35,330 nucleotides of DNA from Chrysochromulina tobinii. Taxonomy: Eukaryota. The position numbers and the translations under genes were made by a program. The notes beneath the pieces are model-generated. The model saw only the letters and a program-made list of their open reading frames with translations. It was not told the DNA's origin and made no database searches. Numbering within the stretch: position 1 is the first letter of the stretch; each line of letters begins with the position of its first letter. Below are positions 12,724 through 34,293 of this stretch, one piece after another. The stretch spans positions 1-35,330 of the forward strand of contig JWZX01002498.1 of assembly GCA_001275005.1 (NCBI GenBank), read 5' to 3'.

Positions 12724-12756
<33 letters not shown>

Positions 12757-13466: not shown

Positions 13467-14579
13467 ATGCCGAAAATGGAATTTGGAAAAATGCAAACGC
13501 CACGTTCGACCGACATGCTGCTCCATCACGAGGTGTTCAAGAACGAGGGAGCCACGCCCGGCCCCGCCAAGGCACATGAGTGGCGTGACTCGAACAGCAC
13601 GCCAACCTCGGTCCTCGATGCGATGCAAGAGCTCGAAGCGATGCAAGAGGGTCGAGCGCAGATTGACGCCGATTGGGCGGCGGCGGCACTGCCATCGCCG
13701 ACTGTGCCGCCGGCTGCTGCGGAGCCACTCACACCTGCACCTGCGCCGCTGCCGCCAACCCCACTGCCAGTGCCGCCTCCACCCACGAATGTGGCGGAGC
13801 TCCGCGTCACGCCATGCGCAGAGCTGCCCCTCGTGTCCACAGTCGAGGGGTTCGCGACTGCGGCGGAGTGCGAGAGCCTCATTGCGGCGGCTTACGAAGT
13901 GCTGGCTTCGTACGACCGGGAGCCCCAGCCACGCGAGCGCATCCCCGTTGCTGCGAGCAGTGAGGCACGGCGCCTGCACGCGAGGCTCCACGCTCGTCTG
14001 CTCTCGCTCATCGAGGCGTGGCCAGGCGATGAGCTGCGATGGGCCACGGACCTTTTTGGACAGGGCGCCGGGCTAAGTGAGATGACGTTCCGATACTCAG
14101 CCGGGGAACCTGCGATCAACATCTACACGGTCGGTGGCGAGTTCGCGCCGCACACGGACGAGGAGCACCTCACCATGCTCATGCCGCTCAGCGGCGGCTT
14201 TGAAGGCGGGGGCACTGCGTTCTGGGGGGCGACCAGCCACCTCCGTCCCGATTTGGGAGTGGACGGTTTGAGCACGGAGGAGCGTATGCGCGCGCATGCG
14301 GACCGCACGAACTGGCTGCCGCCTCAGCTCGTGCTCAAGCCGCCCGCGGGCACGGCAATCCTCTTCGGGGGCGATGTAACGCACGCGGGCTTGCCTGTTT
14401 TGGAAGGCACGCGTCACTTGTTCGTGATGTCGTTCTCGCTCAAGCCAGCTTGGAGGCCACGCGTCATCTACGTGCACGAGGAGGACGAGGAGGACGAGGA
14501 GGACGAGGAGGACGAGGAGGACGAGGAAGACGAGGAAGACGAGGACGAGGACGAGGATATTGATGACGATGCGCGGTGA
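13467..14579 (+). CDS. 2-oxoglutarate/Fe(II)-dependent oxygenase (prolyl-4-hydroxylase-like) with acidic tail
   Basis: NIYTVGGEFAPHTD (HxD), FEGGGTAF, HAGLPVLEGTRHLFVMSF (distal His and Arg); (EDE)n tail from a gaggacgag repeat at about 14478-14560. First in-frame ATG is 13467. Confidence 0.85.
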   Translation: MPKMEFGKMQTPRSTDMLLHHEVFKNEGATPGPAKAHEWRDSNSTPTSVLDAMQELEAMQEGRAQIDADWAAAALPSPTVPPAAAEPLTPAPAPLPPTPLPVPPPPTNVAELRVTPCAELPLVSTVEGFATAAECESLIAAAYEVLASYDREPQPRERIPVAASSEARRLHARLHARLLSLIEAWPGDELRWATDLFGQGAGLSEMTFRYSAGEPAINIYTVGGEFAPHTDEEHLTMLMPLSGGFEGGGTAFWGATSHLRPDLGVDGLSTEERMRAHADRTNWLPPQLVLKPPAGTAILFGGDVTHAGLPVLEGTRHLFVMSFSLKPAWRPRVIYVHEEDEEDEEDEEDEEDEEDEEDEDEDEDIDDDAR

Positions 14580-14754
14580 AGAGGAGGAAGACGATAAGGA
14601 GCTCAGCGGTCGAATGGATATGGGGATGGGGAGCATCAGTCAGTACGGTATGCATGATAGTTAGATCAGTCGTGAAGTATAAATCTATACGTAATAGGTT
14701 TGCGATCTCCCAGGGGTTCCGGCGTTCCGCGGAGTTCTCTCGTCTCAAATATAA

Positions 14755-17700
14755 TCACGTGAGGTCCATCACGTTGGCACTCGCATCACTCTCACCAGCA
14801 GCAGCAGCGCTCCGCGATGCCCCAAGCGACGCCGAGACGAGCGCGGAGCCGGCAAACCCGTCCTCGGGTGCACGCGGTTTGCCTCCACTCGCGCTGCCGA
14901 ACGCCTCCTCGATCGCGGGCATCTCTGCCACGCGGCTCGTGTCGATGTAAACGTGGATGAACGAGTTCGGAAGCACGCCAGCATCGGAGAGCGTCTGCTC
15001 GTCATTGAGCAGCTCATCGCCGTCAATAAAGAGGCGCTGCTGAGACGGCGACCATTCGGTCGCTTGGTAGATACGCAGCTTCAGATTGAGGACGTTGATG
15101 GACGAGCTGGCGCGAACGCTCAACTTCGAGCCTGCCGACGCACGCGACGATCGGCGGGCGGGCCGCCCGCTGTCGCCGCCGCCGCTGCTGTCCGCCACAT
15201 CGACGCTGCCGCCCCCGCCGCCCCCGCCGCCGCCGCTGCCGCCGCCGCTCCCGCTTGCTTTATCCACGTTTGGCAGAGCCGCCAGCTTCTTCAAATGCAC
15301 GGGCTGCTCCGTGTACTCGAGGAGCGCACCGAGCACTTCTAAGCCCAGTTTCGTCGAGCACCCCTCGCACACGGGGGGCTGACATACGAAGCTGCCGTCG
15401 TCACGCAGCTCGCAGCTCGGCAGCCGCAGATCCGTGAGATCGGACAGCGAAGCTCCGTTGGCAAGCTCGAGCGCTTCCTCTGCAGTGACCATGCACAAGC
15501 GTGCGCCTAATTGCTTGTCTCGCTCGGCCTCACGGCGGCTGAGCGCACCGCCGCTGCCGCCGCGCTCTCCATAGCGGCCTTCAAAGGATCCATTCCGAGG
15601 CAGAAGGCCCATCACGTTGCGGACACACAGCTCAGGCTGAATGAGCAGCTTGCCATGATCCGTGCAGCACTCGGCGCCGCGTGGCGCGCCAGGCTTGCTT
15701 ACGTGGGTCGATTGCACGGCATGGCGCCATTCGGCGATCCATGTGCCATCCAGGAGGTAGAGCGGCCTCGTAGAACGTAGGACGTCGGGGTCGAGCCGCC
15801 CATCCTCCTGCAGCAGCCGCCCCAAGCGCTGCCGCTGCGCTGAGCGTGAGGCGATCTCCGACTTGGCGCTCAACTTGGCGCTCATCTTCTCATCCGCCTT
15901 GGCGGCTTCCCTCTCGCATTCCGACACCAGGCACGCCGCGCACTCGACCAGACGGCCATCGCCGTCGCCTCTGCCAACGGCCTCGACCAGTATCGGAATG
16001 CTGTCGGGGAACAGGGCAAAGAGATGCCCCCACGCCTCGGCGCCGATCGTGCGTGCATGCGCCTCGAGCCGCAGCAGCTTATCGTGTGGGCAGAAGAGCT
16101 CGCGTGTCGCATCCCTCTGTCCCTCGCTAAGCCATCTGACCCATTTGCTTCCAGTGAGCCTGGGCACGTAGTAGTAGTCGTCATGCGGCACGCCCCCATC
16201 GCCTCCGTTCGCCTCCACTGAGGCGTGTTTCGTCAGACTGGACGAGGCGCTGTTGAGGGCGACCGCCAGCGCGGCCTTGTGCGCCTCCTTGGCCATCTCC
16301 AGCTGCCTCCTCTCCCATTCCGCGTCCGCACACTCGACGCACCCGGTCGCAAGTAGCTCCGGTCCTCCTCCAAAGAGCCCGAGGAGCTTTTGCCATGCGG
16401 CTACCGAGATGAGTTTCATCGCGCCGGTGCTCACGTGCTTCGGGTCCGCCGCTCCACCGTGGCAGCACTCGATAAATTGGTTGCGAATGGGTCCGAGCTC
16501 GTCGGTGGTGCCTCGTGGCCCCAGTGTCAGGCACGCTTGCAGCCACCTGCTCTCGATCCATCGGCCGTCGTGGCCATCAGAGCGAAGGATCGGACGGAGC
16601 TCGTCGATAAGAGTCTGCCGCGCCGTGAGGCGCTCAGTGTGCGCGCACAGAGCGTCCTGATACTTCTCGGTGGCGGCACGCAGCGCCACATTCGCCGCAT
16701 GCACCGCCTCGCGCACCGTCGCCGGCGCCTGCACCTCCGCGTGCGTCGCCTGCGCCTCCGCGATCACATCGTCGCGCGTGTACATGAGCATGTACGCCTC
16801 GTGCGATGCAAAGAGCCGCCCGTCGCAGGGGGCGCTCTGCTTGAGGAGCGTCACGCCGTTCGGCTTGGGCTTGGTCGCCGCCTTGGCAGGGTCGAAATCT
16901 TCCTCTGTGACGAGCTCGTCGTTCACCGTCAGCCAGCGTGCGGCCGGACTCTGTTCGAGAATACGCGCCGTATAGTGCCCCGAGTGCGCCGACGCCCCCG
17001 AATGCATCAAGACCGCCGTCAGTCGATAGGTGTTCACAGCTTGGGTCGAGGGCGCATTGCTGTGAACATGGCTGTGGCCGCCAGCCGGGCCGAAGACAAG
17101 CGAGCTCGTGTCAAGGAGCTCTGGGAAAATGATCGGGTCGCTCACCTTCTTCTTGGCATCCTTGTTCGGATCGTACACAAAGCGCTTGAGCTGCAGGCAG
17201 AGCACCGGCGGCAGCTGGCGAATCGCGATCTGCCGTGTGGCGTCGCGACGGCCCTTGCAGTGAATGCACTCGTACTGGTTGCTCCCGTCGAGATGCTCCA
17301 CTGCTATATACTCGTCGAGCGCTTGCTGCAGCGTCGGGCGCACATTGAGATCCAGTTCATAGAACGGGAAGCAGATGGACGACGAGTCGGAGGGCGTGCG
17401 GCAGGTGCAGCACTGCGTGTGGTAGCAAAACGAGCCGCGAAAGTGGTCCTGAACGAGGGTTTGTATGGCCGGCTCCGGAGAAAGCTTCAGCTGCTCCTCT
17501 AGGAATGAGAGCAGCAGCTTGCAAAACTCCGACGCATCCTGCTGCACGGACACGTCGAGGCTGAGCGCGGACGTGAGGGCCGCCGGGTCGTAGCACGCGG
17601 AGTCCGAATGCTGAAGATTCGCAAACAGGAGTTGCAGCTGGCGGCAGACCTCATCGGCCCGCACCTCCTCTGGGCGGCGCGACGAGCCGGTGGAGGCCGC

Positions 17701-18108
17701 CGCCGCCGCTGCCTCGGGCGGTGGTGGCTGCCCACTGCTACCGCCACCAGCACCTGCCCCACCAGCCCACTTGTAGATGCCACGGCGGAATCCGACATTC
17801 ATGTGCAGGCATTGAAGCAGCGAGTTCATGTAGCATGTTGCCCCGAGATTGCGGAGACCTGTGCCTGCCGTGGCGTCGGTACGCACTTTGTCTCTTGGCT
17901 CCAACCCGAATAAGAGCTTCGCGTCTGCATCCTTGGCGGCCTTCTTTGCGGCCGCCTCCACAGCCTGGAGATCGGTCGGATCTGCCGCGCTCTTCTGCTT
18001 CTTCGCCGCAGCTTGCGTGGCCAGTCCATAGATGTACTGTTGCCGCGCCTTGGCGTCGGACAGCTGCGGCATCGGCATCGCGTCGCGACGCACTTTCTTG
18101 CCAGACAT
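14755..18108 (-). CDS. Ubiquitin-specific protease, USP48/UBP26-like (C19 peptidase, DUSP-like segments, C-terminal ubiquitin-like domain), intronless
   Basis: Cys box GLRNLGATCYMNSLLQCL, QQDASEF, LQLKRFVYD, His box HSGASAHSGHYTA, DUSP-like C.HG segments, C-terminal UBL (LKLRIYQATEWSPSQQRLFIDGDELLNDEQTLSDAGV). ATG at 18108 (MSGKKV) preferred over 18306. Confidence 0.92.
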   Translation of the reverse strand: MSGKKVRRDAMPMPQLSDAKARQQYIYGLATQAAAKKQKSAADPTDLQAVEAAAKKAAKDADAKLLFGLEPRDKVRTDATAGTGLRNLGATCYMNSLLQCLHMNVGFRRGIYKWAGGAGAGGGSSGQPPPPEAAAAAASTGSSRRPEEVRADEVCRQLQLLFANLQHSDSACYDPAALTSALSLDVSVQQDASEFCKLLLSFLEEQLKLSPEPAIQTLVQDHFRGSFCYHTQCCTCRTPSDSSSICFPFYELDLNVRPTLQQALDEYIAVEHLDGSNQYECIHCKGRRDATRQIAIRQLPPVLCLQLKRFVYDPNKDAKKKVSDPIIFPELLDTSSLVFGPAGGHSHVHSNAPSTQAVNTYRLTAVLMHSGASAHSGHYTARILEQSPAARWLTVNDELVTEEDFDPAKAATKPKPNGVTLLKQSAPCDGRLFASHEAYMLMYTRDDVIAEAQATHAEVQAPATVREAVHAANVALRAATEKYQDALCAHTERLTARQTLIDELRPILRSDGHDGRWIESRWLQACLTLGPRGTTDELGPIRNQFIECCHGGAADPKHVSTGAMKLISVAAWQKLLGLFGGGPELLATGCVECADAEWERRQLEMAKEAHKAALAVALNSASSSLTKHASVEANGGDGGVPHDDYYYVPRLTGSKWVRWLSEGQRDATRELFCPHDKLLRLEAHARTIGAEAWGHLFALFPDSIPILVEAVGRGDGDGRLVECAACLVSECEREAAKADEKMSAKLSAKSEIASRSAQRQRLGRLLQEDGRLDPDVLRSTRPLYLLDGTWIAEWRHAVQSTHVSKPGAPRGAECCTDHGKLLIQPELCVRNVMGLLPRNGSFEGRYGERGGSGGALSRREAERDKQLGARLCMVTAEEALELANGASLSDLTDLRLPSCELRDDGSFVCQPPVCEGCSTKLGLEVLGALLEYTEQPVHLKKLAALPNVDKASGSGGGSGGGGGGGGGSVDVADSSGGGDSGRPARRSSRASAGSKLSVRASSSINVLNLKLRIYQATEWSPSQQRLFIDGDELLNDEQTLSDAGVLPNSFIHVYIDTSRVAEMPAIEEAFGSASGGKPRAPEDGFAGSALVSASLGASRSAAAAGESDASANVMDLT

Positions 18109-18304
18109 GTGAAGAGGTTCTCTCCGAGAATACGGGAGCTGACTTTTTTCGCAATGACACAGTGATCTTCTGGACCGTGAATGAGTGGTGGAGTTGATTG
18201 AATACATGTGCTGAACTTGAGACGAAACACTGCGTTCACGAGTTCGTTCACACGTCGCGGGCCTACTCGCGCGGCAAAGGACGAAACGCGTCTCGCGGGA
18301 CATC

Positions 18305-18898
18305 ATGCTGCGGCTGCCGCTCCAAACCGCCCTACTGGGCGGCGTGCTCTACGGCCCGGCACCCTGCTCCCAAGCACCTCTTGGAGAACAGTGCAACGGC
18401 TCCCGGTGCCATCCCGACAACAGCAATTGCCCGCCAGTGTCGACTCACCCATCTTGCGGAGAGCATCCTCACTCCGGGCGCGATGGTGCGCTCCTCACCT
18501 GGGGCAAGGACTTCCGCGCCGGCTCTGCGCAGGAGTGCTGCGACAAGTGCAAGGCACACCCGAAGCACTGCAACTCGTGGACGTTCTGCCCGTTGCCCGT
18601 CTGCTGGGGTCTCGACTCGGGCAACAACCACACGTTTGGCGAGTGCTGGCTGCGACGTCTCCAGGACGTGCAGGCGGACTCAAGCTTTCGTCAGCGCGGC
18701 AAGTACACGCAGGAGTGGCTTCTTTGGCACCGGCGCGTGCGCCCAGGCTGCAAGCACAAGGAACCGTGGCATTGTTCTCCGACTCACGTGCCGTATACTT
18801 CCGGAGCGATCGGGGGCCCGCCGTACGACCCGACGGCCGAGTTCCGTACCGGTGGCAAGTGGGGCAACGTGTGGGTGAAGCCGGGGAGTGGTAGTTGA
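18305..18898 (+). CDS. Secreted Cys-rich PAN/apple-like domain protein
   Basis: Hydrophobic N-terminus; SAQECCDKC..CNSWTFCP..C......GECWLR..VPYTSG pattern typical of plant/algal PAN-like proteins. Confidence 0.7.
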   Translation: MLRLPLQTALLGGVLYGPAPCSQAPLGEQCNGSRCHPDNSNCPPVSTHPSCGEHPHSGRDGALLTWGKDFRAGSAQECCDKCKAHPKHCNSWTFCPLPVCWGLDSGNNHTFGECWLRRLQDVQADSSFRQRGKYTQEWLLWHRRVRPGCKHKEPWHCSPTHVPYTSGAIGGPPYDPTAEFRTGGKWGNVWVKPGSGS

Positions 18899-19292
18899 CG
18901 ACGGGCTGGTCACAGTCGCAGACGTCACATCCGCCACAAGCTTTGCACTGTGTTCTTTTACGCTCGGCATTATACAGACTTAGCGGCACCGGCGTTTAGT
19001 TTTAAGGGAAACGAAAGCGGTTTGGGGCGTTGCGCGGCCCCGGGTTACTAACACGCGCCGCGCGCCGCTGTTTTTGTGCCCGCGCGAGGCTGTTTTTGTG
19101 TACGGGCGACCGCTGCCATCGACCTTGTGGGATGGTCTTCGAGGAAGATATTATGAATATGAGATGCGTGAATTCCTTGGTCCGCACACGGCACCCATCG
19201 CATGCACGTCGATCCGCCTGGAACACGTGGAGACACTTCACGCACTTCCAAAAATATGTGAGCTCTGCCTCCGGCATCTCTCAACGGATTCG

Positions 19293-21191
19293 TCACCGCA
19301 TCTCAGGGGATGCGTTCTTGGCGCCCGACTCGTCGCCCAGGAAGGTGGCGAGCACCGCCGCCGCGAGCGCGAGCTGCTTCTTGAGCGAGAGCCGGTACGA
19401 GACGAGCGCAATCTGGCACGGGAGCACCGGATCTCCCCGCGCAGATGCCATCTCGAGCGCGAGCAGCTCCTTCGCGTCCTCATCGAGCGAGGTCGTCATC
19501 TCGCCCAATCTCCACCGGATGGCGGCGAGCAGCGGCGCGGGTCTGATGGGCTCCTCGCCCTTGGGCACCTGATGAGGGAGGCCATCAGCATGCAATCAGG
19601 CGCGGGTCTGATGGGCTCCTCGCCCTTGGGCACCTGATGAGGGAGGCCATCAGCATGCAATCAGGCGCGGGTCTGATGGGCTCCTCGCCCTTGGGCACCT
19701 GATGAGGGAGGCCATCAGCATGCAATCAGACTCAATCAGTCTGATGGGCTCCTCGCCCTTGGGCACCTGATGAGGGAGGCCATCAGCATGCAATCAGACT
19801 CAATCAGTCTGATGGGCTCCTCGCCCTTGGGCACCTCCCCCAGCAGGCACTCGAACGATGATGATGGCCATGCAAGGGCAATCAGCGCACCTCCCCCAGC
19901 AGGCACTCAAACACAGCCGCGAGCCGCGCCGACGAGGCCAGCGACGAGCCGCGATGCGCGTCAAACGCCGCCAGCAAACCGCCGATCGCCGCGCTCGACT
20001 CGGTGAGCGGTGTCGAGGGACTTGCGGCGGCAGCTGCCGTAACCCCCGGGGCGTTGGCCGCGATGGCAGCGCCGAGGGTCGCACGCAAAAGCTTCGCATC
20101 CTTGGCACACCCGTCGCTTGGCACGAAGCCATACTGAGCGAAGAGTTGCTCACCTGATGAGGAGGCACGCAGATGCCATCAGATGCGAGCAGAAGACGCA
20201 AGCAGACGCAAGCAGAAGGTGCAAGCAGACGTAATTGATGATGGATGCAATCAGGTGCAATCAGATGCAATCAGTCCTCACTCGAGTAGTCCGGATCGTA
20301 ATTGATGGTCACCTCCTCCCCTGGCTTGAGGTCGGCTAGCGCGGTGAGCGTCGCGCCGTCTTGGGCATCGACGCGGAAGTTGGCCGTGGGCACGTCCGCG
20401 TGCTGCGCCATGTCCAAGAACGGCACGAAGGCGAATGTGTCGCCGTCGGCCATCGCAAAGCAGCGCGAGACCACGAGCGCATACGCGTAGGGCAGTGGAC
20501 GAGGGATGTATTCCATCGGGAAGCCCCTGTTTGTGTAGGAGGCGGTGACCGGGTGCGTCGCGTGCGCGTGGAGCGATGGGTGCAGATCCTGGAAGAGCGC
20601 CCTCTTGGCCTGCACCTTCGCTTGCAGCTCCACATTCTGCAGCTCCGGCAGCATAGCCTGTGGAAGACAGAGCGGGTGCGTCATCGACGGCGGCGGCGGC
20701 ATCAACTTGCGATAGTCGTCCCAGAAGCCGCCCGCTCCGCCCGCGGTCGCTTCGTAGACGGCGAGCGCGAGCCGCACATCCCATGTGGCGCCGCGCTGGA
20801 AGAGCTCCTCGCCGACCTCCTCGCGCAAGTCGCCAGCGGCCTCCCACATGACTTCCGTTTGGCCCTGAAGACCACCGATGCGTCCTGAGCGATGCGCGGT
20901 GAGCAGCAAGCTGGCGGGAACCGAGAGTACAATGTCACCCTTGCTCACTGCGCGACGCGTCACCAGCCGCCGGCCGCCGCTGCCACGCGCTGACCCTTCC
21001 AGCGTGATAGCGGTCAGCGGATCGTGCTCGGTGAGGAGCGCCGTAAAGAGTGCCGTGGGTCCGTCCGGCGGCTGCTGCAAGCTGATGGCGCTCACTCGTT
21101 GCCTGCAACGATGGCCGGCGCTCAGCCCGTAGGAGGCGCATGCGACAGCGTCGAGTGCTGAGTGGAACCCGAGCATGTTTGCGGCGAGCAT
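19293..21191 (-). CDS. SET-domain lysine methyltransferase, Rubisco-LSMT-like, 3 exons
   Basis: Exons 21191-20282, 20153-19891, 19568-19293. Motifs GRRLVTRRAVSKGDIVLSVP, VSRCF, VPFLDMAQH, GEEVTINY; splicing restores YSSEQLFAQYGF; C-terminal TSLDED..YRLSLK resembles the LSMT substrate-binding domain. Confidence 0.88.
19536..19835. repeat. 65/68-bp tandem repeat spanning intron acceptor and exon start (about 4.5 copies)
   Basis: Unit gtctgatgggctcctcgcccttgggcacctgatgagggaggccatcagcatgcaatcag, with acceptor-like AG at 19569, 19634, 19699 and 19767. Confidence 0.92.
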
Positions 21192-21341
21192 TGTGGTTTG
21201 GCGTCGCAAATGGATCTGGAAAATCTCAAATCTGAATTCGGTGAGTGTTTGGAACAGGACACGGTTCGCGCTCATTGCCTTGGCGGCTCATTGCCTGGAT
21301 GCACCCGCTCGCCGTATGCCCTTCCACACCCTCGTCTTGTC

Positions 21342-23728
21342 TCAGCCCGCGAGCTGGACGCACTGCCGGCGTACCCGAAGCTGCTTGCCGTTGCCGAGCT
21401 CGACGAGATAGCGCGCCGTCTCGGTATCGTGCTCGAGCACGCGCGCGAGCTCACCATTCAGATGCGTCGCCGTGGACGCCTGCAAGCCCGCGACGACGCC
21501 GACGCTCTGCACGGGCAGCACCGCCGCGCCGACGGGCAGCGGGATTGCATCTCCCGAGCCGAGCTCGACGCCGTACAGCTGCGCGGCTTCGTCAAACTCA
21601 AAGACGGTCGCGCTCGCGCCGTTGTGAGCGCTGTGCTCGCCCACGAGCCCTTCAATGCGCACCTGATGAGGGAGGCAATCCGAATGAAATCAGCATGCAA
21701 TCAGCATGCAATCGGCATGCAATCAGCATGCAATCAGCATGCAATCAGCGCACTTCGAGCATCTGGAGCAGATTGAGACGGCGCACGCGCAGCAACGTGC
21801 CGTCCCGCAGCGCCACTGTGTATCGATCCGCCTCGCTCTCATACCCCTTGAGGACGCCCACCTGCCCATCCGATGAGGGCGGCCATCAGCATGCAATCAG
21901 CTTGCAATCAGCATGCAATCAGTACCCCTTGAGCACGCCCACACCTGCCCATCTGATGAGGGCGGCCATCAGCATGCAATCAGTTCCCCTTGAGCACGCC
22001 CACACCTGCCCGTTGCGTTCGGCAGCCCCCTTGAGCCCGCGCAGCTTGACGTACCTGATGAGGGAGGCAATCAGCATGCAATCAGCATGCAATCAGCATG
22101 CAATCAGCATGCAATCAGCATGCAATCAGCATGCAATCAGCATGCAATCATTCCCCTTAAGCGCAGCTTGACGTACCCGTCGATGGGCAGCGTCATCAGA
22201 GCGCCGTGTGGAGCGCCACCTGACGAGGCGGGTGCCGCCCCCTCCGCTGCCGCCATTGCCGCCGCCGCCGCAGCCGATGGCTGACCGGTAGAGGCGCACG
22301 CGGCGACTCCGGTCGGTGCTCGGGACGCCGCCGCCGCCGCTGGCTCGGGCGCTCGGTACAGCGCGTGTGGCTCCGGCGGTGCTGGCGGCGGCGTGGTCGG
22401 CCGTCGTAACGACATCCGCCGCGCCTCATCGACCGTGCCATCCGGGGCGCGCTTGCGATTGCCATCGTACAGGGACGCATGCAACCGCCGTTCGTTGAAC
22501 CAACGGCCATCCATGGCGGCGAGGCATGCCTGATGATGGGAGCAATCAGGCGCCATCAGCTGTCGCACTCAGAGGCTTTCGGTGGCGAGGCCTGCCCTGA
22601 TGATGGGAGCAATCAGAGGCATGCCTGCCTGATGATGGGAGCAATCAGAGGCATGCCTGCGCGCTTGCCGCCTGTGTGAAACGGACGGCCATCGGCCCGT
22701 CCATCTCTGCCGCGAAGGACTGCACTCGCTCGACCTCGCCGAAACGCAAGCACTCGCACCTGCCATCAGCAATCAGCATGCAATCAGCATGCAATCAGCA
22801 TGCAATCAGCATGCAATCAGCATGCAATCAGCATCTCGCTCGTCGTGCAATCGTCATCCAATCAGCATGCAATCAAAGCACTCGCACCAGACAGATTCCT
22901 CAAGGGCACCGAGAAAAGCGCGCACCTGCCATCAGCACGTCATCAGCACGTCATCAGTTGACCAGCATAGGCAATCATACGCACTCCAATGCAATCATAG
23001 CCAATCATACGCACGTCGCCGCAGCTGCCCATCTGATGAGGGCGGCAATCAGCATGCAATCATACGCACGTCCCCGCAGCTGCCAAGCTCTTCGATGGAG
23101 AAGAGGTTCGTCAGCACCACCACGCGTGCCCAGTCCTCCTTGGGCACGGCGCCGCGCGCCTCGAAGTGCGCTGCGCTCACCTGTGGGAAAGAGGGTGGGC
23201 GCGCCGTGGTGAGCACCTGCATGCAACGGCGTCTCCCTCCGCCAAGTGCGCCGCGCTCACCGTGAGCGTGTCGCCGAAGAGAGCCCAGTCGCGCGAGAGG
23301 GCGGCCTGCAGGCCCGCGTCGGTCGCAAAGGTCACCAAGCCATCGCCCTTCGGCTCACCGGCCGCATCCTTGTACAGCTTGACCCTGCGCACCTCGCCCG
23401 CCTTCGAGAAGAGCGTCTGCACCGCTGTCCAGACGACCTCCTTCGGGATACCCGTAACGTAGGCGGTGAAATTGGCCACGTTGGCCTCGGCGGCGGCGGC
23501 CTTCTCCTTGCGCCGCTCGGTCTTGCGCTGCAGCTTGCGCCGGCGCTGCTCCTCGGCTGATTCGGCGCCCGCCGCGCTCGTCGAGGCGAACACGGAAGCC
23601 CACGCTTCTTCCTTGGTGTCGCGCTCGTCGTCACTGCCGCCGACGGAGCCGCTGGCCATTTCGAAATTGCGCTTCTGTGCCTTGGCCAGGCGCTCCTGCT
23701 CGGCCATCATCGCGGCTTGGTACGCCAT
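21342..23728 (-). CDS. Tat-SF1/Cus2-like two-RRM splicing factor with three C-terminal SH3/KOW-like repeats, 8 exons
   Basis: Exons 23728-23261, 23180-23070, 22925-22888, 22759-22657 (GC donor), 22529-22177, 22054-22006, 21861-21754, 21662-21342, phase-consistent. RRM1 AYVTGIP..FSKAG..VKLYKDAAGEPKGDGLVTF; UHM-like RRM2 VVVLTNLF..ECLRFGEVERV..ACLAAMDGRWFNERRLHASLYDG. Confidence 0.8.
21689..22150. repeat. (GCATGCAATCA)n 11-bp arrays in introns of the RRM gene
   Basis: Arrays at about 21689-21748, 21886-21922 and 22067-22150; the same unit also at about 22769-22833 and 7798-7823. Confidence 0.9.
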
Positions 23729-23882
23729 TTTGCTTCCCCTCGAAGACACTAGACATCCGATTTCACGTGAATGCGCGGCGTGCGGCAGATCCTCAACCTT
23801 GCATCGGCATCACGATTACAATCGCATAAGAAGGAGTCCATAAGAAGCTCTATTGAGCGCGACGCCGAGTTTCGGCGACATT

Positions 23883-24929
23883 ATGCTGGTCGGATTCGGC
23901 GGGGTCGCAGTCGGTCCATGGCGCTCCCGCAATCCGCTGGCGTGCGCCGTGGACGACAAGCCGTGGCGCGAGCCCTGGCGTGAGGAGCTGTACGATCAAC
24001 TGCAGCATGAGCTGGATTGGAGCCACGTGAACGAAGCCATCTCCCGTGCCGTCTCGTCCGGAGTGGCGCTGCCAGGTGACCTTCAACCCGCACCGCTGTC
24101 GCCTCTGCCTACGCCTCGGCCGCGGCATGCCCACGAGCCTCCTCGCCATACATGGGCGTTGCGAGTCGCCTACCACGGCCCGTCCTACTGTGGGTTTGCT
24201 TGGCAGCCAAGTGGCACCTCCGTGTCAGGGTGCGTGGAGGCGGCGATCGCCTCGCTGCTCGGAGAGCGCACGGTGCTTGCTTGCGCCGGGCGCACGGATG
24301 CGGGGGTGTCTGCGATCGGCCAGCTCGTCACGTTCAGCACCTTCGATCCCACACTCAACTTTGAGGCGCTCAGCCGCGCTGTCGCCGCGGCAGCGCCGTC
24401 GGTTGGCACGCTCCGCCTCGTGTCGGCGCAGACGGTGCCGCGCTCCTTCCACGCCACCTTCTCGACGGCGTGGAGAAAGTACGTGTACCTGCTCCCCGCC
24501 AACGACGCCACCCTCGGCGCCGACGCCGACGCGATCGACCGGCAGCTCCGTCCGCTCGTCGACGCGGGTGAGGCCCACTACGGCGCACTCGGTCGAGGGC
24601 TGCCTCGAGGCAAGAGCCCACGGATGAGGCTGCAGCATGCGAGTGCGCGCGCGGTGCAGCTCGAGGGCGGCGCACGCGCGATCCGGTTCGAGCTCGTCGG
24701 AGATCGCTTCTTGCGCCGACAGGTGCGCACCCTCGTCGCAACGGCGGTGCATGCTGCCAGGGAATGCGGCTCTGGCGACGCGATGGGCGACGTCGAGGAA
24801 GGCGATGACGTGGCTCCTGGGTCCACGCTGCTTCGCATGGCCACGTCGGGGCGGCAGGAGCTGACGGCGCATCCCGCGCCACCCACCGGGCTGGTGTTTG
24901 CGGACAGCGGCATTCTCGAGGCCGGCTGA
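23883..24929 (+). CDS. tRNA pseudouridine synthase, TruA family, intronless
   Basis: LRVAYHGPSYCGFAWQ, AGRTDAGVSAIGQ (catalytic Asp), FHATFSTAWRKYVY, GDRFLRRQVR, APPTGLVF. First ATG is 23883. Confidence 0.92.
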   Translation: MLVGFGGVAVGPWRSRNPLACAVDDKPWREPWREELYDQLQHELDWSHVNEAISRAVSSGVALPGDLQPAPLSPLPTPRPRHAHEPPRHTWALRVAYHGPSYCGFAWQPSGTSVSGCVEAAIASLLGERTVLACAGRTDAGVSAIGQLVTFSTFDPTLNFEALSRAVAAAAPSVGTLRLVSAQTVPRSFHATFSTAWRKYVYLLPANDATLGADADAIDRQLRPLVDAGEAHYGALGRGLPRGKSPRMRLQHASARAVQLEGGARAIRFELVGDRFLRRQVRTLVATAVHAARECGSGDAMGDVEEGDDVAPGSTLLRMATSGRQELTAHPAPPTGLVFADSGILEAG

Positions 24930-25688: not shown

Positions 25689-28600
25689 TTAATAGAATCC
25701 GCCCGCCTCCGCAATCGCCGCCCTGATGGCGGCGTCGCCGTCCGCCAGAGTCCGAATCGCCACCCTGATGGCGGGGTCGCCGAGCGCCAGAGTCCGCAAC
25801 GCGCCGGCAGCGTTTGCCAAAAGCGCACCTGATTCCCAGAGTTTGATCATCCCGTCGACCGATCCCGACACGATCTTCGATCCGTCCGGGGAAAACGCCA
25901 CCGACATGACGTGGCTGCTGTGCGCGTCCGTCTTCTCGCTCAACAGCTCCAGCTCTGCCAGACAAGCCAGCATCCGTCAGTTTTGGCCAAGGAGGGGCGA
26001 TTCTGAGGGCTCACGGCGCACCTGAATCCCAAACTTTGATCGTCCCGTCGTACGATCCAGAGACAATCTTGGTCCCGTCCAGGGAGAACGCCACCGACAT
26101 GATCTCGCTGCTGTGCTCGTTCGTCTTCTCGCTCAAGAGCCCCAGCGCGCCTGCGAGACAAGCCAACAAGCGTCAGTTTTGGCCAAGGAGGGGCGATTTT
26201 GAGCTCGCGGCGCACCCAAATCCCAGACTGTGATCGTATTGTCGTCCGATCCGGACACAATCTTGGTCCCGTCCGGGGAAAACGCGACCGACCTGATCCA
26301 GCTGCTGTGTGCGTTCGTCTTCTCGCTCAGCATCTCCAGCTTGCCTGCCAGACAAGCCAAGAAGCGTTAGTATTGGCCGAGGAGGGGCGATTTTGAGCTC
26401 GCGGCGCACACGAATCCCAGACTTTGATCGTCCTGTCGTGCGATGCTGAGACAATCTTGGTCCCGTCTGGGGAAAACGCCACCGAACTGACGATGTTGCT
26501 GTGGGCGTCCGTCTCCTCGCTCAACAGCTCCAAGTTGTCTATCAGACAATCCAACAAGCGTCAGTTTTGGCGAAGGAGGGGCAATTTTGAGGGCTCACGG
26601 CGCACCTGAATCCCAGACTTTGATCGTCCCGTCGACCGATCCCGAAACGATCATGGTCCCGTACGGGGAAAACGCCACCGACATGACGATGCCGCTGTGC
26701 GCATCCGTCTCCTCGCTCAACAGCTCCAAGTTATCTGTCAGACAATCCAACAGTGTTGGCCAAGGAGGGGCGATTCTGAGGGCTCACGGTGCACCTGAAT
26801 CCCAAACTGTGATCGTCCCGTCCTCCGATCCCGACACAATCTTGGTCCCGTCCAGGGAGAACGCCACCGATTTGATCTCGCTGCTGTGCTCGTTCGTCTT
26901 CTCGCTCAAGAGCCCCAGCGCGCCTGCGAGACAAGCCAACAAGCGTCAGTTTTGGCCAAGGAAGGGCGATTTTGAGCTCGCGGCGCACCCGAATCCCAGA
27001 CTTTGATCGTCCCGTCGTACGATCCTGAGACAATCTTGGTCCCGTCTGGGGAAAACGCCACCGAACTGACGATGTTGCTGTGGGCGTTGGTCTTCTCGCT
27101 CAACAGCTCCAGTGTGCCTGCCAGACGAGCCAGCAGGAGTCACTTTTGGACAAGGAGGGGCGATTTTGAGCTCGCGGCGCACCTGAATCCCTGCAGACTT
27201 CGATCGTCCGGTCGTCCGATCCCGACACGATCGCCTCCATCGCCGCTTGGATGGCGGCGTTGCCGGCAGCCAGAGTCCACAACGCGCCGGCCGCGTTCGC
27301 TTTGCCCTGAGCGTCACCGTCGCGCACGAGCGCCACGAGCGCCTCAACGGCGCCCGCCGCCGCCATCGCCGCCTTGTTGGCTTTGTTGTGCGCTAGCTTC
27401 CCCAAGGCCTCCGCGGCTGCGGCACGCTCCTCAGCGGTACCATCTCTGAGCATCGCCACCAGCGGCGGGAGGGCGCCGGCCGCGGCGAGTGCCCCACGCA
27501 TCGGATCCGTCGATTGAGCTGGCGGTGCGTCGGCGAGACTGGCGATGCCACTCGCCACCGGCGTCCGCGCACCGATGGCGCACGCTTGGAGCAATGCCAC
27601 CAGCGCCGCAGCCGGATCCACGTTAGCCACAGCGCGCTCCACCTCCTCGGTGGTGAGAACGCTCTCCGAGGCGATTCCGAGCACCTCGAGTGTCTTTGCC
27701 TTCATCGGCTCCACCTGAAGCATCTGCTCGCGGATCATGACGCGCTCGGCCGCACAGGCCTCCTTCCAGTCCGTCATCTCGTTGGCCGCCTCGAGCACGA
27801 GCTCCGCCGTCGACTGCTCGCGCCAAACAAACGTGCCGCGCTCGTGTGAGGCCTGCGTTTGCAGCTTTGCCACGATCGCCTCGGTAAACGCGGGGAATCG
27901 CTGCAACTTGAAAGTTGAGGCGTCAGCGGCGAACGCCTGCTTCGCCTGGCTCACAAACCTGTGCTGGCTCTCCATAGCGCTCTTCACCATCGCCAGGTGC
28001 ATCGCGGCGAGCCCAGTGCAACCACCAGGCTTCACCAGCTTCGAAACCGTCGGCTTGATGATGCTATCAAAGCATTCATCAGCCACCCCACCCATCGCCT
28101 CGTCCAGCACCGCCTCGGCAGCTCGGCACGCCGCCGCCCGAAGCTCGTCGAGGGCCGGGCCGGTCGGCGCCTCGACCGCCTCAGGCAAGCCGAGCGCATC
28201 GCACTTCGCCTGCAGCCGCTTGAGCTCTCCGTTGAGGCGGATCAGCGTCTGTGGTGCCCAGGTGCTGCGCAGATATCGGGCGTAGACGCTGCTCAGCTTG
28301 TCCACGAGCGCGTCGCACGTCAGCAGGCCATCGGACAACAGCGGCGCTAGCAGCGGCTGCGACGCAAACCACTTGCGCTCGGCCGTCGCCATCGCCTCAA
28401 GCCGCTGCACGTTGCTCAAACCCTCACCCTTGATCGGCTCCGTCATCGTGCCGATGAAGCCGTGCGGTGCGAGCTGAAACGCATCGCCCGACGTCTGCCT
28501 CAGCCGGTCCGGCAGCTTCTTCATGTCCAGCTTCCCGACGTTGTCGCACATCGTCACCACGCCGATCGTGTCGCTCTGCAGGCCCAACTCCTCCACCAGC

Positions 28601-29466
28601 TGCAAGCCGAGCGACTGGGACGGAGGCATGGAGGCTGTGCAGCTCACGAGGAAGATGGCCGATCCCTTGTGCTGCTCGACCTGCGCCTTGACCAGGGCCT
28701 TTGCCTTCTCCGGCATGTCCGCCGCGTCCGAGCCCGCCGACAGCTTCAGCCCGGGTAGGTCGACCAGGTCGATGCTTGGCACCGCCGGCGAGTGCACGTG
28801 CACCTCGATCGTGCGCGTCATGCTGACCGAGGTAAGGCCGCCGTGCTCGGCAGCAAGCACGCGCTCCATCTCATGCCGCACGTCCACCTGCCCGCCCGCG
28901 AGCGACACTGTGCGCCGCACCTCCTCCTTGCCCGTCGCGCTGTCGCGCACCACCAGCACCGGCAGCTGCGCCTCCTTTGTGTGACGCAGCTTGAGCAGGA
29001 TGGGCAGCCGCGTGCACGTGTCCTCGCCGCGCGGCAGCAGCGGCATCATCGCGAGTCGCTCGAGCAGCGACGACTTGCCGCTCGTCTCCTGGCCGAAGAC
29101 GATCACAACCGGGGTCTTCCAACCCTCCAGCGTCGCAGCCAGCAGCTCCGACAGCGGGTCCAGCACATCAAACACCACCTTGAGGGCCTCGAGGCTCTTG
29201 AAGGTGACGGATCGTGCCTGGCGCGCCTTTAGCAGCTCGCCGTCCGCGCGCAGCTGCGCCAGCGCCGCAACCACGTCGGCCGGCGCCTCGCCCAACTCCT
29301 CGTGCATGGGCTGCTCCGGGTCCTGAGGCGAGACAATCGGCAGTCCTTCGGACTTGCGGGCGGCAAAGTACTTGAGGAGCGAGGAGCGATCGTAGACGTG
29401 GCCATCGGCCGCGAGCACCGGGTCGCGGATCAGGTCGTTTGTGAATGCGTCGATCAGCTCCAGCAT
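25689..29466 (-). CDS. U-box + dynamin/Mx-like GTPase + ARM repeats + 7 WD40 repeats, 8 exons, about 1107 aa
   Basis: Exons 29466-27183, 27117-26989, 26923-26795, 26734-26606, 26538-26410, 26344-26216, 26150-26022, 25954-25689 total 3324 nt; all introns GT-AG, phase 1. U-box ([25 protein letters not shown]), dynamin G1 [10 protein letters not shown]2 CTRLP, G3 DLPG, G4-like TMCD; ARM ([46 protein letters not shown]); WD40 HS....[22 protein letters not shown]. Confidence 0.88.
25825..27231 (-). repeat. About 194-bp intron+WD40-exon tandem array (7 full units plus a partial WD40)
   Basis: Intron consensus gtgcgccgcgagctcaaaatcgcccctccttggccaaaactgacgcttgttggcttgtct(c/g)gcag (60-67 nt) followed by a 129-nt exon; the last WD40 unit is one codon shorter. 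Confidence 0.95.
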
Positions 29467-29892: not shown

Positions 29893-32265
29893 CTACGCAG
29901 CCAGTGCCGCACCGTCAGGGTAGGCTGGCGCAGACGACGGTGCGCTCGGCGGCGAGGCCACGCTCCTCAGCTTGTGACTCAGCTTGCGGCGCCCTCCCAA
30001 GCTCTGGTCCGAATTTGGGGTCCCAGGGGGGGTCCAAGGCTGTGCGTCGTGGAATTGGGTCCGGGGGGGAGGCTCTGGGGCATCCCCGTCATTTCCGGGA
30101 GGGGTGCTTGGCTCGGCATCTTGGAAATCGTCGAGGGAGGCGAGCGAGGCGGAGGAGGAGGAGGCACGCGAGGCTCGTCGGGCCTCGTCGCACATCAGCC
30201 GTCGAGAGGACAGAGCGGAGAAACCACCGCCGCCGACGCCGCTGCCGAAGCCATCGCCGCCGCCCGCTCTGGCACCTGCGCCAATGCCAGCAGCCCTTCC
30301 GCTGTCCTCAATCGCCACGAACGCACGCCACCGATGAAGGCTCGCGAAGACGAGCGAGCGGGCCCAGTGGCGAGCCCACGAGCGCACAAGAACCGCACCA
30401 CACCAGTGGCCGAGCGCTCGCTGCTCCTCGCCCATCACGGCGCGCGTGCGGCGCAGCGCCCAGTGTGCCTGCACTAGGCGCTCCCGCCAAATGGCCTCGC
30501 CCTCGGCGGCAACGCTGCCCGCGGAAGCGCCGGAAGCGGCGGCGACGCCAGTAGCGGAAGCGCTGGAGGCGGCGGAGACAGTAGGGTTAGGGTTAGGGTT
30601 AGCGGTGGAGACGGTAGGGAGAGCAGGTGCGTTGAGTGCCTCTGATGACGTGCGTTGCATGCAAGCGCTCACCACGACGCCAGTAGCGGAGGCGTTGGAG
30701 ACAGTAGGGTGGCGGTTTGGCGGCGGCAGCCCCAGCGTAGTCGTTGCGCAACGGGCAGCGGCTTCAGCGGCGGCAACCTGCTGCTGCTGCGGCTGCGGCT
30801 GCTGCTGCTGCACGAACGCTCGCCACACCCGGCACGCGTCCTGCACTCTCCGCGCATCCCAGCACTGTCCGAGGGTGTTCAGCAGGCTGAGGGCATGGGC
30901 ATGGCTACGTGCCCGGGCATAGGCCGTCGCTCGATGGGTCGCGCGTCGACTGCCCTCGAGCGCCGCCACCACCAATGTCGAGTGCCAGCGGCGGAGGCAG
31001 TGACGTGTCGACCGCTCGTCAGACAGGCGGATGGCGCGGCGTAGCGTCTGGCGGCACCGCACCACACGTGCCGCATCGCCAGCCGCGAGCGCGTCGTCCT
31101 GAGCGCCACGGATGTGGCCGATGAGGGGCGCGTCGTCCTGGGCGCTACGGGGGTGGCCGATGAGGGGCGACGTGGTAGCATCGATGGCGGCGTGGGCATC
31201 ACGTGCCGCATCGGTGGCGGCGGCCGCCGCTTTGCATCCCTTCCTCCCGAGATCGTCCCTTCCTTCCGAGATTCCTCCCGAGATCGCCGCTTTGCATCCC
31301 TTCCTCCGAGCCCTCTCGAGATCATCCCGGAGGGTCTCGATGATCGGCTCAACCTCCCGAAGAGCTCCGACGGAGATCGGCTCAACCTCCCGAAGAGCTC
31401 CGACGGAGATCGGCTCAACCTCCCGAAGAGCTCCGACGGACGCCGCCTCCATGTGCGTCGCAATCACAGTGTCGTCAATCTCCCGAAGAGCTCCGACGGA
31501 CGCCGCCTCCATGTGCGTCGCAATCACAGTGTCGTCAATCTCCCGAAGAGCTCCGACGGACGCCGCCTCCGTGTGCGTCGCAATCACAGTGTCGTAGAGG
31601 GAGAGCAGCGCGCGCATGTCCGCCGCCGGCAGCTCCTCCGCTACCGCGCCGCCGCCGCCACCACCACCGCCGCCACCACTACCACTACCGTTGTCGCCAC
31701 CGCTGCCGCCACCGCCACCGCTGTCGCCACCGCCACCGCCACCAAGGGTGAGTGTGAGAGAGCGCAGAAGCGCCGGCTCGAGCACCGTCTCGGGCGCCGT
31801 CTCGGGCGCGTGCTCATGGGCCGCGAGCAGCGCCCGGAACGACGCGAGGGCGACGGCGCGCTGGTTGGCGCGGCAGCTTGCGGCCAGGAGCGTGGTGACC
31901 CCGGCGACCGGGGGCGTCCAGCCGGCGTCCACTATCTGTGTGAGGAGGGCGTGGGCCGCACCGACTGCGTCCGCGTTGGCCATCGAGAGTGCGGCGCGGC
32001 TTGTGAGGGTGAAGATAGCGCCGTACGCCGCCTCGCTCGGCGTGTAACCGTCGCGCTGGATCGCCGTGAAGAGCGACGTGGCACGCGACGTCATCGCCGC
32101 GGACGGCTCTGCGGCGAGCTTGACGACAAGGGCGCTGCGGTCGCCCGATGTTGCCTGGTGGCCGAGAGCGGTGAGCTCGTGCTCGAGGTTCAGGCACTGC
32201 TCAAGGGTGCCCTCGGCGAGACACGCGCGCAGCAGCTGCACTAAAGCATCGACGCCCAGGGAAGC

Positions 32266-32297
<32 letters not shown>

Positions 32298-32364
32298 CCG
32301 CGGGTGCCTTCATCGAGGGTTTCGCAAGTGTGGGGAGGGACTGTGGAATGTCCAGCGGCAGCAT
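29893..32364 (-). CDS. Hypothetical Ala-rich protein with N-terminal PPR-like helical repeats and in-frame tandem duplications
   Basis: Long ORF (29893-32478); ATSLFTAIQRDGYTPSEAAYGAIF and AHALLTQIVDAGWTPPVAGVTTLLAASCR resemble PPR motifs. First ATG is 32364; introns cannot be excluded. Confidence 0.55.
30582..30602 (+). repeat. Interstitial telomeric repeat (TTAGGG), about 3.5 units, inside an ORF
   Basis: tagggttagggttagggttag; translated as NPNPNP on the minus strand. Confidence 0.85.
31343..31595. repeat. In-frame coding tandem repeats: 33 bp x3 adjoining 60 bp x about 3
   Basis: Translate as (SVGALREVEPI)n and (DTVIATHMEAASVGALREID)n. Confidence 0.9.
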
Positions 32365-32519
32365 GCAACAAACTAAGTGGGGAGATAAGGGGGGAAGGGG
32401 GGGAGCGGTTTCATGCGAACGCAATGCGGCAACGCCATGCCTTGATGTCTGCCTGGATGTCCGGAAGCTTCGCATCACTCAGAATATGGGTTCACCATGT
32501 CCGTAGCAATGCGCAGCGA

Positions 32520-33131: not shown

Positions 33132-34293
33132 ATCCCGCCGTGCAGCTGCGAGCGGGCGCGGAAGAATGCCAGGGTGCCGTCGGTCGCGAGCGGCCGGGAT
33201 CTTGACGATGTGGTGCGCGCGCTCCGCCTCCAGCGCAGCAATGGCGGCCATGTAGTCGACTGGCGCCTTGCCTGTTGTCCAGCTTGGCAACAGGCACGAG
33301 GAGCGAGTCGTCCGGCCGGGATCTTGATGATCAAGTCGAAGATGCCGCTATGAGCTTGTTGAGCTTCGGGAGAGATGTCGCGGGCCGTTGTGGTAGATGT
33401 AGTTTTCTCCTCTTGCGATGCACATCGCGTTGTCTGCCCCAGGAGCCGCCCAAGCATCCAGCGGTTTGCAGCATCGCGGGTTTCCGCAGTGCCAGTTTCC
33501 CTTTGCAAGGGCGAAGAAGACGTCGACCTGTTGAGGCGGGCGCCGCCGCGTCCACCACGTTCAGGTTGTGGCAGAGGGAACGTCGACCTGTTGAGGCGGG
33601 CGCCGCCGCGTCCACCACGTTCAGGTTGTGGCAGAGGGTCAGCTCGCCGTTCGACTTGGTCTTGGGCCTCGGCGCTCCGAGCGCGATCTGGCCGGCCGGG
33701 GAGCACATAATGATCGCCGCCGCATTACGGCACCCCGAGCGTCTGTCCTCCTTGACCACGTAGCGGCCGATGTACTCCTCCTTGGAGGTGTCAATGTTGC
33801 GCTCCTTGTCGGCGAGATGCACATCGCGTTGTCTGCCCCAGGAGCCGCCCAAGCATCCAGCGGTTTGCAGCATCGCGGGTTTCCGCAGTGCCAGTTTCCC
33901 TTTGCAAGGGCGAAGAAGACGTCGACCTGTTGAGGCGGGGGTGGTGGGGGGAGGGTGTGCAAATGAGTCATCTGGAGTGAGTTTGTGAGTGACAGGGCAG
34001 GCAAGGTTGGGGCTGCACGTGCCTGTCCCATCGGGACCGAATTGACTGGTTGCCGGATATTCGCCGGACCGTGCCACCGGGGCAACTGGCACGTCTCGCC
34101 AGTCTGCGCTCGTTGCGGCTCAGTCCGCGGCGGCTGTTGGGCGCGTCGTGCGCATCCCGCCGTGCAGCTGCGAGCGGGCGCGGAAGAATGCCAGGGGTCG
34201 CGAGCGGCCGGGATCTTGACGATGTGGTGCGCGCGCTCCGCCTCCGGCGCAGCAATGGCGGCCATGTAGTCGACTGGCGCCTTGCCTGTTGTC
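33132..34293. repeat. Nested direct repeats A-B-C-C-B-A
   Basis: A: 33132-33279 vs 34154-34293 (8-nt indel); B: 33417-33540 vs 33816-33939; C: 60 bp x2 at about 33520-33638. Followed by (AACTTG)n at about 34334-34362. Confidence 0.88.

Follow-up and report, generated by a model that had tools for sequence, protein, structure and literature searches.

The gene and its predicted product

The 35,330 nucleotides of contig JWZX01002498.1 from the haptophyte Chrysochromulina tobinii (GenBank assembly GCA_001275005.1), referred to here at their full length as the window, contain on the minus strand, between 29466 and 25689, a gene for a putative multidomain protein with an N-terminal U-box, a dynamin GTPase domain (G domain), a helical stalk, two armadillo (ARM) units and an array of seven WD40 repeats (Table 1). 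This architecture had been proposed in an earlier, model-generated reading of the sequence alone, and the gene model and the Pfam assignments bear it out. The gene was found to be one member of a family of U-box-dynamin proteins in protists, the C-terminal tails of which differ among close paralogs, and a role of these proteins as modular restriction factors is considered below.

The frame opened by the ATG at 29466 runs unspliced to a TGA at 27100 and comprises 788 aa; the 791 aa given in the sequence-only reading apply only when the count starts from a GTG at 29475. Seven GT-AG introns of 60–67 nt, in phase 1 throughout, were predicted to divide the gene into a first exon of 2284 nt, six exons of 129 nt and a last exon of 266 nt. 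The predicted spliced product of 3324 nt (1107 aa and the stop codon) contains no internal stops, in agreement with the proposal that seven phase-1 introns join the first reading frame to the WD40 array in a single frame. Retention of intron 1 makes the frame stop at 27100.

Tandem Repeats Finder delineated a 194-nt unit repeated 7.3 times at 25823-27232. Within this array the exons are 76–95% identical and the introns 75–98% identical among themselves, and since both are alike, the duplicated unit is an exon together with an intron. The WD40 block starts mid-repeat at 27231, just past the point, 27232, where the similarity to close paralogs ends, and closes with a 6-nt donor remnant at 25828, after which the frame returns to an ARM fragment containing a 42-nt duplication. 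Because of the mid-repeat start and the in-frame ARM fragment behind the donor remnant, the WD40 block is taken to be inserted in an ARM array, a correction to the sequence-only reading.

The U-box-dynamin core

Pfam assigned Dynamin_N to residues 121-306 (E = 4e-19) and Arm to residues 694-734 (E = 2e-10), with a weaker HEAT/ARM unit at 657-691, and WD40 was matched in both of the two exons tested. ARM repeats are thus present as had been claimed, with only about two units ahead of the WD40 block. The Pfam U-box match at residues 3-37 reached 21.2 bits and fell just below the cut-off of 21.4; the profile of the family matched the U-boxes of PUB12, CHIP and LubX (E = 3e-14 to 1e-5), and the U-box of this copy was modelled confidently by AlphaFold2. 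Relative to the family consensus, C-P-I is replaced by D-A-F, W by Y and S-P-x-T by S-P-Q-D, the changed residues of this copy being I8F, W33Y and T49D. Across the family the consensus is intact, and the divergent positions are presumably those in contact with the E2 enzyme.

The G domain displayed all four motifs, G1 (GQETSGKS), G2 (T152), G3 (DLPG) and G4 (TMCD). Residues G125, G130, K131, S132, T152, D236, P238 and G239 were invariant in 54 of 54 members, and in G4 the Asp is kept in the family while the Lys is often replaced by Met. The G1 position corresponding to Gln40 of dynamin is occupied by Glu in this copy (E127) and in 149 of the 169 members whose P-loop could be read; Gln is kept in MxA and in P0026, an Mx-like protein. 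In dynamin itself, the Q40E substitution causes a selective loss of assembly-stimulated GTPase activity (PMC3561337).

The AlphaFold2 model of residues 1-639 shows a U-box, a G domain and a long helical stalk with a mean predicted local distance difference test score (pLDDT) of 89.8 and a predicted template modelling score (pTM) of 0.83, and supersedes an earlier model with a pLDDT of 75. Foldseek matched this predicted fold about equally well to dynamin, MxA/B and Drp1, over 500–740 columns (E = 1e-17 to 1e-21) and with template modelling (TM) scores of 0.37–0.49 over the whole chain. By its G-domain motifs and the predicted fold of its bundle signalling element (BSE) and stalk, the protein has the classical core of the dynamin superfamily. 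PADLOC returned only weak P-loop/HEAT matches, in three of four proteins.

Variable codons of the WD40 propeller

Seven complete repeats are enough for one propeller. In the fungal HNWD receptors, codons 12, 14, 30 and 32 of the WD40 repeat are under diversifying or positive selection, and the selected codons are located on the top face of the propeller (PMC12222747, PMC1805685). When the seven repeats were numbered by the HNWD convention, with the register checked on HET-R P0097, codons 12, 30, 14 and 32 occupied ranks 1-4 of 40 in nonsynonymous divergence. Nonsynonymous divergence (pN) was 0.58 at these four codons and 0.08 elsewhere, with a synonymous divergence (pS) of 0.26, and a score as high was reached by one of 91,390 four-codon sets.

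The analogy to HNWD receptors drawn in the earlier reading holds for the sensor, the repeats of which vary most at codons 12, 14, 30 and 32, and fails for the NTPase switch and the death effector. Neither an NTPase of the STAND class (NACHT or NB-ARC) nor a death domain was detected by Pfam, and the NTPase is a dynamin. A search with a single WD40 exon retrieved proteins of a generic kind, namely NACHT-WD proteins of fungi and WD40 proteins of bacteria, and among the 120 matches listed of 3069 there was no donor from a named haptophyte.

Junctions and splicing in sequence-read contigs

The 5′ ARM-WD40 junction is bridged by an RNA-library contig without any differences (X13 record 30, 27187-27340) and the 3′ junction by a DNA contig (X1 record 1) as well as an RNA-library contig (X12 record 17), which makes it unlikely that the junctions were misassembled. 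Assembly could still have affected how many WD40 repeats there are and how they are ordered, and short-read assemblies have been reported to misbuild the repeat arrays of HNWD genes (PMC12222747). DNA run X1 lacks cover at 27194-27303, a gap that proves nothing. All three RNA runs, but not the DNA run, contained a join of the predicted donor at 26988 to the predicted acceptor at 26345. The spliced RNA contigs are 90% like the locus and may stem from paralogous arrays; they validate the splice sites for the WD40 repeat family and not for this locus. The segment 29486-29600 was covered by DNA and by none of the three RNA runs, which is a weak hint of transcription only.

Close paralogs and exchange of tails

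Ten proteins were found with cores 88–96% identical and with tails that differ past the ARM units. These tails consist of long ARM arrays, ARM repeats with ankyrin, repeats of a decapeptide, a MIF4G domain with a match to eIF4G (E = 2.5e-42), an H2B-like segment matching H2B (E about 1e-13) and split by an insert, and others; an FG-rich tail ends loci L004 and L011. A Chrysochromulina parva protein aligned to 35% of the query with 90% identity, and one of the paralogs falls into a cluster with a fragment from C. tobinii.

Among the metagenome loci (n = 11), L008 and L009 represent the present locus, and only a fragment is given by L010. With 99.95% identity to the window, L008 lends no independent support; L009 (99.9%) ends before the junction. 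The remaining loci lose similarity at 27232, the tail-swap point, with the exception of L005, which does so at 27500, and where the 5′ end was covered their similarity ends at or just above the ATG. As the similarity is confined between the ATG and 27232, the loci are non-syntenic duplicates of an intronless cassette of 2.2 kb. Twice, two architectures were found to share one assembly (L004 with L008, and L001 with L002). The possibility that had been set against an immune role, a single-copy housekeeping dynamin-related protein, does not apply, because the same assemblies hold paralogs with different tails. The core is under purifying selection, with a pN/pS of 0.40 for the core as a whole and of 0.29 for its G domain (six loci, including two near-duplicates).

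The in-frame state of the tails was considered as proof of selection and dropped, since recombination through ARM homology keeps the frame anyway. Two further observations were made on the paralogs. L005 contains a Cys-rich, zinc-finger-like insert (CxxC...CxxC, about 6970-7300) between the core and the ARM array. In L002, L003 and L007, which represent one ARM-only paralog, the order and sequence of the ARM units differ between assemblies, through either repeat shuffling or assembly ambiguity.

The U-box-dynamin family

A profile built from 11 sequences retrieved 692 representatives of 50% identity clusters at E ≤ 1e-30, and 5453 representatives at E ≤ 1e-10, where other dynamins are likely to be included. 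Among 181 members examined, 127 had room for a domain upstream of the G domain and 123 of these carried a U-box there, as counted with a hidden Markov model built from the family itself; the Pfam U-box at E ≤ 1e-4 was matched in 36 of 58 and 35 of 70 members in two batches. An Atlas cluster of 84 members, all of them eukaryotic, contained Dynamin_N in 95% and the U-box in 92% (score 0.97). The named genera, Chrysochromulina, Mallomonas, Symbiodinium, Cymbomonas, Tetraselmis, Hemiselmis and Stephanoeca, belong to haptophytes, chrysophytes, dinoflagellates, chlorophytes, cryptophytes and choanoflagellates.

A tail of at least 100 aa is present in 36 of the 96 members traced to their last helix. 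The tails of distant members include NHL, Kelch, WD40, leucine-rich repeat (LRR), ankyrin, ARM, filamin, TLDc, Neuralized, C-type lectin, pentapeptide and SUMO-like modules, with NHL in seven and filamin in four of the 58 members of one batch, and the WD40 and NHL tails occupy separate parts of the tree. The WD40 tail is one option among the tails of a wider family and does not define it.

Two U-boxes were present in 11 of the 127 members, and six members (P0168, P0172, P0175, P0200, P0211 and P0190) have either two U-boxes or, next to the core, a domain resembling ubiquitin or SUMO. With regard to the dynamin clades shared with viruses (MADS, PADS and MidX), which are marked by giant-virus members interspersed in them, two scans gave 0 of 79 and 4 of 97 candidate viral stretches; neither these nor BFVD, where dynamin-type matches were 9–17% identical, yielded a U-box-bearing viral member of the family. 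The four viral dynamin candidates (L012-L015) lie on AT-rich viral contigs, measure about 590–645 aa and lack a U-box, and the three viral dynamins placed in the tree fall outside the U-box-dynamin family.

The architecture was not recognised as a described family in the sequence-only reading, and a literature search, in which listed papers were judged by title or the start of the abstract, likewise found no description and otherwise gave analogues or unrelated work. The term U-box is absent from the main texts of Langley 2025 (PMC11789081) and Sheikh 2023, as far as these were covered, and their supplements may include members. The Cymbomonas and Symbiodinium accessions in the available parts of PMC11789081 differ, when compared by accession, from those of family members. 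The family is widespread in protists and apparently undescribed.

Position among dynamins and comparison with known systems

With the single sequence as query, MxA was the best match in the PDB (72 bits, vs about 55 for other dynamins), and MxA and MxB made up the top nine matches. The scores of the family profile were nearly level, with CmDnm1 first (146), followed by MxA (130), Drp1 (123) and Vps1 (120), and as a control, a true Mx-like protein scored 225 with MxA. In a G-domain tree of 43 rows, made by a quick method, the 35 family rows formed one clade with full support in the Shimodaira-Hasegawa-like approximate likelihood ratio test (SH-aLRT 100) on a stem of 2.36 substitutions, which leaves from the same unresolved fork as the Mx-like, dynamin and viral sequences. 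The rows were drawn from 64 candidates, of which P0201 and L012 were dropped when no P-loop was found and the others thinned by hand. The references were thin (three Mx-like, one dynamin, three viral and one ambiguous sequence) and included neither human MxA nor PADS/MADS sequences. The label Mx-like used in the earlier reading therefore lacks support, given the rank of CmDnm1 over MxA, the score of the control and the place of the family in the tree; with so few references, membership in Mx is neither shown nor excluded by these sequences.

MxA, MxB and the Mx-like lineages treated by Langley et al. 2025 (PMC11789081) share with the family the G domain, the BSE, the stalk, the lack of a PH domain and the turnover of paralogs. 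The family differs by its N-terminal U-box, its optional C-terminal ligand-binding tails, the Glu at the Gln40 position and a G4 motif that often reads T-M/K-C-D, and in the thin tree it is not nested among Mx-like sequences. RNF112 (neurolastin) also has an N-terminal E3 domain fused to a GTPase of the dynamin superfamily (PMC12012479), but there a C3HC4 RING is combined with an atlastin-like GTPase and a transmembrane anchor, whereas the protist family has a U-box, a classical dynamin core and variable tails. The brown algal ROCO-LRR and NB-ARC-tetratricopeptide repeat (TPR) genes (Zambounis et al., PMC3341825) are likewise candidate immune receptors of algae with a GTPase and a sensor encoded as one repeat per exon; they combine Roc-COR or NB-ARC with LRR or TPR, in contrast to the dynamin, U-box and WD40 found here, where whole tails are swapped. 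The fungal HNWD proteins (HET-D, HET-E, as well as HET-R; PMC1805685, PMC12222747) share highly similar WD40 repeats varying at the same four codons, and differ in that the present gene has neither a NACHT nor a HET domain, seven repeats instead of the usual 11, and one repeat per exon, with the repeats 76–95% identical in DNA.

Plant U-box-ARM (PUB) ligases resemble the gene in combining a U-box, of a type matched by the family profile, with ARM repeats; in the present gene a whole dynamin lies between the two, and in most of the family ARM repeats are lacking. The TRIM ligases (TRIM5alpha/TRIMCyp, TRIM21 and TRIM-NHL) consist of an N-terminal E3 domain, an oligomerising middle part and an exchangeable C-terminal binding module. 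Their functional logic appears to be the same, and NHL and filamin tails recur in the U-box-dynamin family; the scaffold of the family is a dynamin GTPase without homology to TRIM, the TRIM motif of RING, B-box and coiled coil is absent, and neither RING nor B-box was detected by Pfam.

A proposed TRIM-like restriction factor and its alternatives

To our knowledge, little has been established on the defence of protists and algae against giant viruses, which shape the blooms of haptophytes. We give about an even chance to the reading that the gene is a tail variant of a protist family whose members work as modular restriction factors, much as TRIM ligases do. It builds on the observed domain order, the family, the tail swapping among close paralogs and the hypervariable propeller codons, onto which the following biochemical steps are proposed. 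The tail would bind a foreign or damaged target, here by the top face of the propeller, and the stalk would polymerise the protein around it. Clustering would gather many U-boxes, so that the target is ubiquitinated and removed by the proteasome or by autophagy. The family-wide Glu at the Gln40 position would weaken assembly-stimulated GTP hydrolysis, and instead of cutting membranes the polymer would then stay in place as a coat or scaffold. Recombination in the ARM array would be the source of new specificities, since it adds further modules to the protein; some of these resemble host proteins targeted by viruses (the MIF4G of eIF4G, histone H2B and FG repeats). The likeliest candidate targets would be giant viruses.

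Several points weigh against this reading. When the diversity at the four propeller codons was compared to that at fourfold-degenerate sites, the difference was marginal (0.52 vs 0.27, p = 0.049; p = 0.065 without two near-duplicate repeats), and the test codons were fixed after the codon table had been seen; instead of being selected here, the variation may have come along from a pool of WD40 repeats across the genome and predate the capture of the array. The U-box of this subfamily diverges from the consensus and is the least constrained part (pN/pS 0.62): its Phe, at a position usually taken by Ile or Leu, is shown by one of 38 rows, and its Tyr by three rows vs 43 with Trp; this copy may be a weak ligase, or may work together with others. 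In 60 of the 96 members traced to their last helix the tail is shorter than 100 aa; some of these may have been cut by introns or contig ends, and the sensor evidently need not be present. Evidence for the MIF4G fusion comes from a single contig, which could be an assembly chimera formed via ARM repeats. The ligase and GTPase activities of RNF112 are independent (PMC12012479). Splicing of intron 1 at this locus was not seen among the contig matches listed, and intron 3 is retained in a locus-identical RNA-library contig (X12 record 18), possibly from pre-mRNA or from DNA carried over into the library. The motif CTRAC was present at position −23 in five of the seven introns and absent from introns 1 and 3.

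Part of these points would also fit a recent chance chimera, in which the core family is real and the tail of the WD40-bearing copy has no selected role, the ARM repeats of a young duplicate having received a block from a multicopy WD40 exon-intron array. Both junctions are ragged: on the 5′ side the block starts mid-repeat and an insertion of 3 nt destroys a Trp, and on the 3′ side the donor remnant is followed by a duplicated scrap of ARM. The paralogs are young (pS about 0.07) and weakly constrained, the sole locus-identical contig informative on introns is the unspliced one, the branch motifs of introns 1 and 3 are weak, and this WD40 exon was found in none of the ten other loci compared. 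Yet 1107 codons are open across both junctions and seven introns, the repeats number exactly seven complete ones, and unrelated beta-propeller tails (WD40 in P0017/P0021, NHL and Kelch) were recruited separately elsewhere in the family, and such a chimera is regarded as unlikely.

A housekeeping or stress-related quality-control ligase, in which a dynamin scaffold assembles on the membranes of organelles or vesicles to ubiquitinate proteins of the host, with the tails as adaptors for such substrates, would account for the similarity of the core fold to membrane-remodelling dynamins, for the lack of a long tail in most members and for tails such as filamin, TLDc, CAP-Gly and SUMO-like modules, which are ordinary adaptors; RNF112 provides a non-immune precedent for a RING-GTPase. 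This explanation is rather improbable in view of the unstable copy number and architecture, with near-identical cores and different tails in one assembly and differing tails among three close Cymbomonas copies, the concentration of the WD40 variation on codons of the recognition surface, and the scattering of the named members over lineages. An Mx ortholog with a switch of the HNWD kind, in which the WD40 sensor releases the NTPase to activate the N-terminal effector, is very improbable: the top PDB matches, one family member annotated as MX2, the presence of Mx-like proteins in haptophytes (PMC11789081) and the likeness of the repeats to those of fungal NACHT-WD and HET-type proteins are outweighed by the rank of CmDnm1 over MxA, the long stem in the fork, the Glu where MxA and P0026 keep Gln, and the lack of NACHT, NB-ARC and death domains by Pfam.

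For the TRIM-like reading, a wider version is put forward tentatively: an ancient, unrecognised clade of ubiquitin-ligase dynamins may be the protist counterpart of TRIM factors, with a slowly hydrolysing polymer that would coat and ubiquitinate viral or microbial structures, and with sensor or decoy tails swapped at an ARM recombination site (the tails counted here being WD40, NHL, Kelch, LRR, eIF4G MIF4G, H2B-like and FG repeats). The occurrence of the family in at least six eukaryotic lineages makes it a concrete candidate for antiviral defence in algae. If so, a clade would be added beyond two recent surveys of dynamins, as far as these were covered, and a logic like that of TRIM, possibly with integrated decoys, would have evolved independently on a dynamin scaffold. 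Even outside immunity, the family would represent a natural Q40E dynamin with a ligase attached.

Features and neighbourhood in the window

Table 1. Coordinates of the U-box-dynamin gene, its parts and the ordinary neighbouring genes in the window
Feature	Position	Strand	Remarks
Exon 1	27183..29466	-	2284 nt, no introns; encodes the U-box, G domain, stalk with BSE, both ARM units and part of a WD repeat
U-box, residues 3-58	29293..29460	-	Pfam 21.2 bits, family profile, consensus counts
Dynamin G domain, residues 118-385	28312..29115	-	Pfam and G1-G4 motifs
Helical stalk and closing helix, residues 386-598	27673..28311	-	AlphaFold2, Foldseek; predicted dynamin-like BSE and stalk
Two ARM/HEAT units	27232..27498	-	Pfam; paralog comparison; tail-swap point at 27232
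Intron 1	27118..27182	-	65 nt, GT-AG, phase 1; branch motif GTGAC, not CTRAC
Exon 2, WD40 repeat 1	26989..27117	-	129 nt
Intron 2	26924-26988	-	
Exon 3, WD40 repeat 2	26795..26923	-	
Intron 3	26735-26794	-	60 nt; branch motif at -23 missing; unspliced in one RNA-library contig
Exon 4, WD40 repeat 3	26606..26734	-	
Intron 4	26539-26605	-	
Exon 5, WD40 repeat 4	26410..26538	-	
Intron 5	26345-26409	-	
Exon 6, WD40 repeat 5	26216..26344	-	
Intron 6	26151-26215	-	
Exon 7, WD40 repeat 6	26022..26150	-	
Intron 7	25955-26021	-	
Exon 8	25689..25954	-	WD40 repeat 7, donor remnant read through (25828-25823), in-frame ARM remnant, TAA
Ordinary neighbours	3439-4248, 6924-11122, 13356-14579, 20271-21287, 23180-23809, 23844-24929		Pfam

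No defence cluster around the U-box gene was evident from the Pfam content of its neighbours in the window. The ordinary neighbours encode an ankyrin protein, one or more EF-hand proteins, a 2OG-Fe(II) oxygenase, a SET domain, an RRM and a tRNA pseudouridine synthase. A frame of 1197 aa on the minus strand (14755-18348), about 7 kb from the U-box gene, contains UCH (USP deubiquitinase), DUSP and ubiquitin-like domains and is probably an unlinked neighbour. Just upstream of the U-box gene and on the same strand, a frame of 861 aa (29893-32478) without Pfam matches displayed perfect internal tandem repeats of 33 nt and 60 nt.

Many short tandem repeats of ATCAGCATGCA-like 10-11-mers are dispersed over 7798-22957, in sequence that by its look is intronic or intergenic. 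The segment 33170-34250 on the minus strand, without Pfam matches, consists of rearranged duplicated segments in blocks of about 150 nt with a perfect 60-nt tandem at 33520-33638, and looks like shuffled gene debris.

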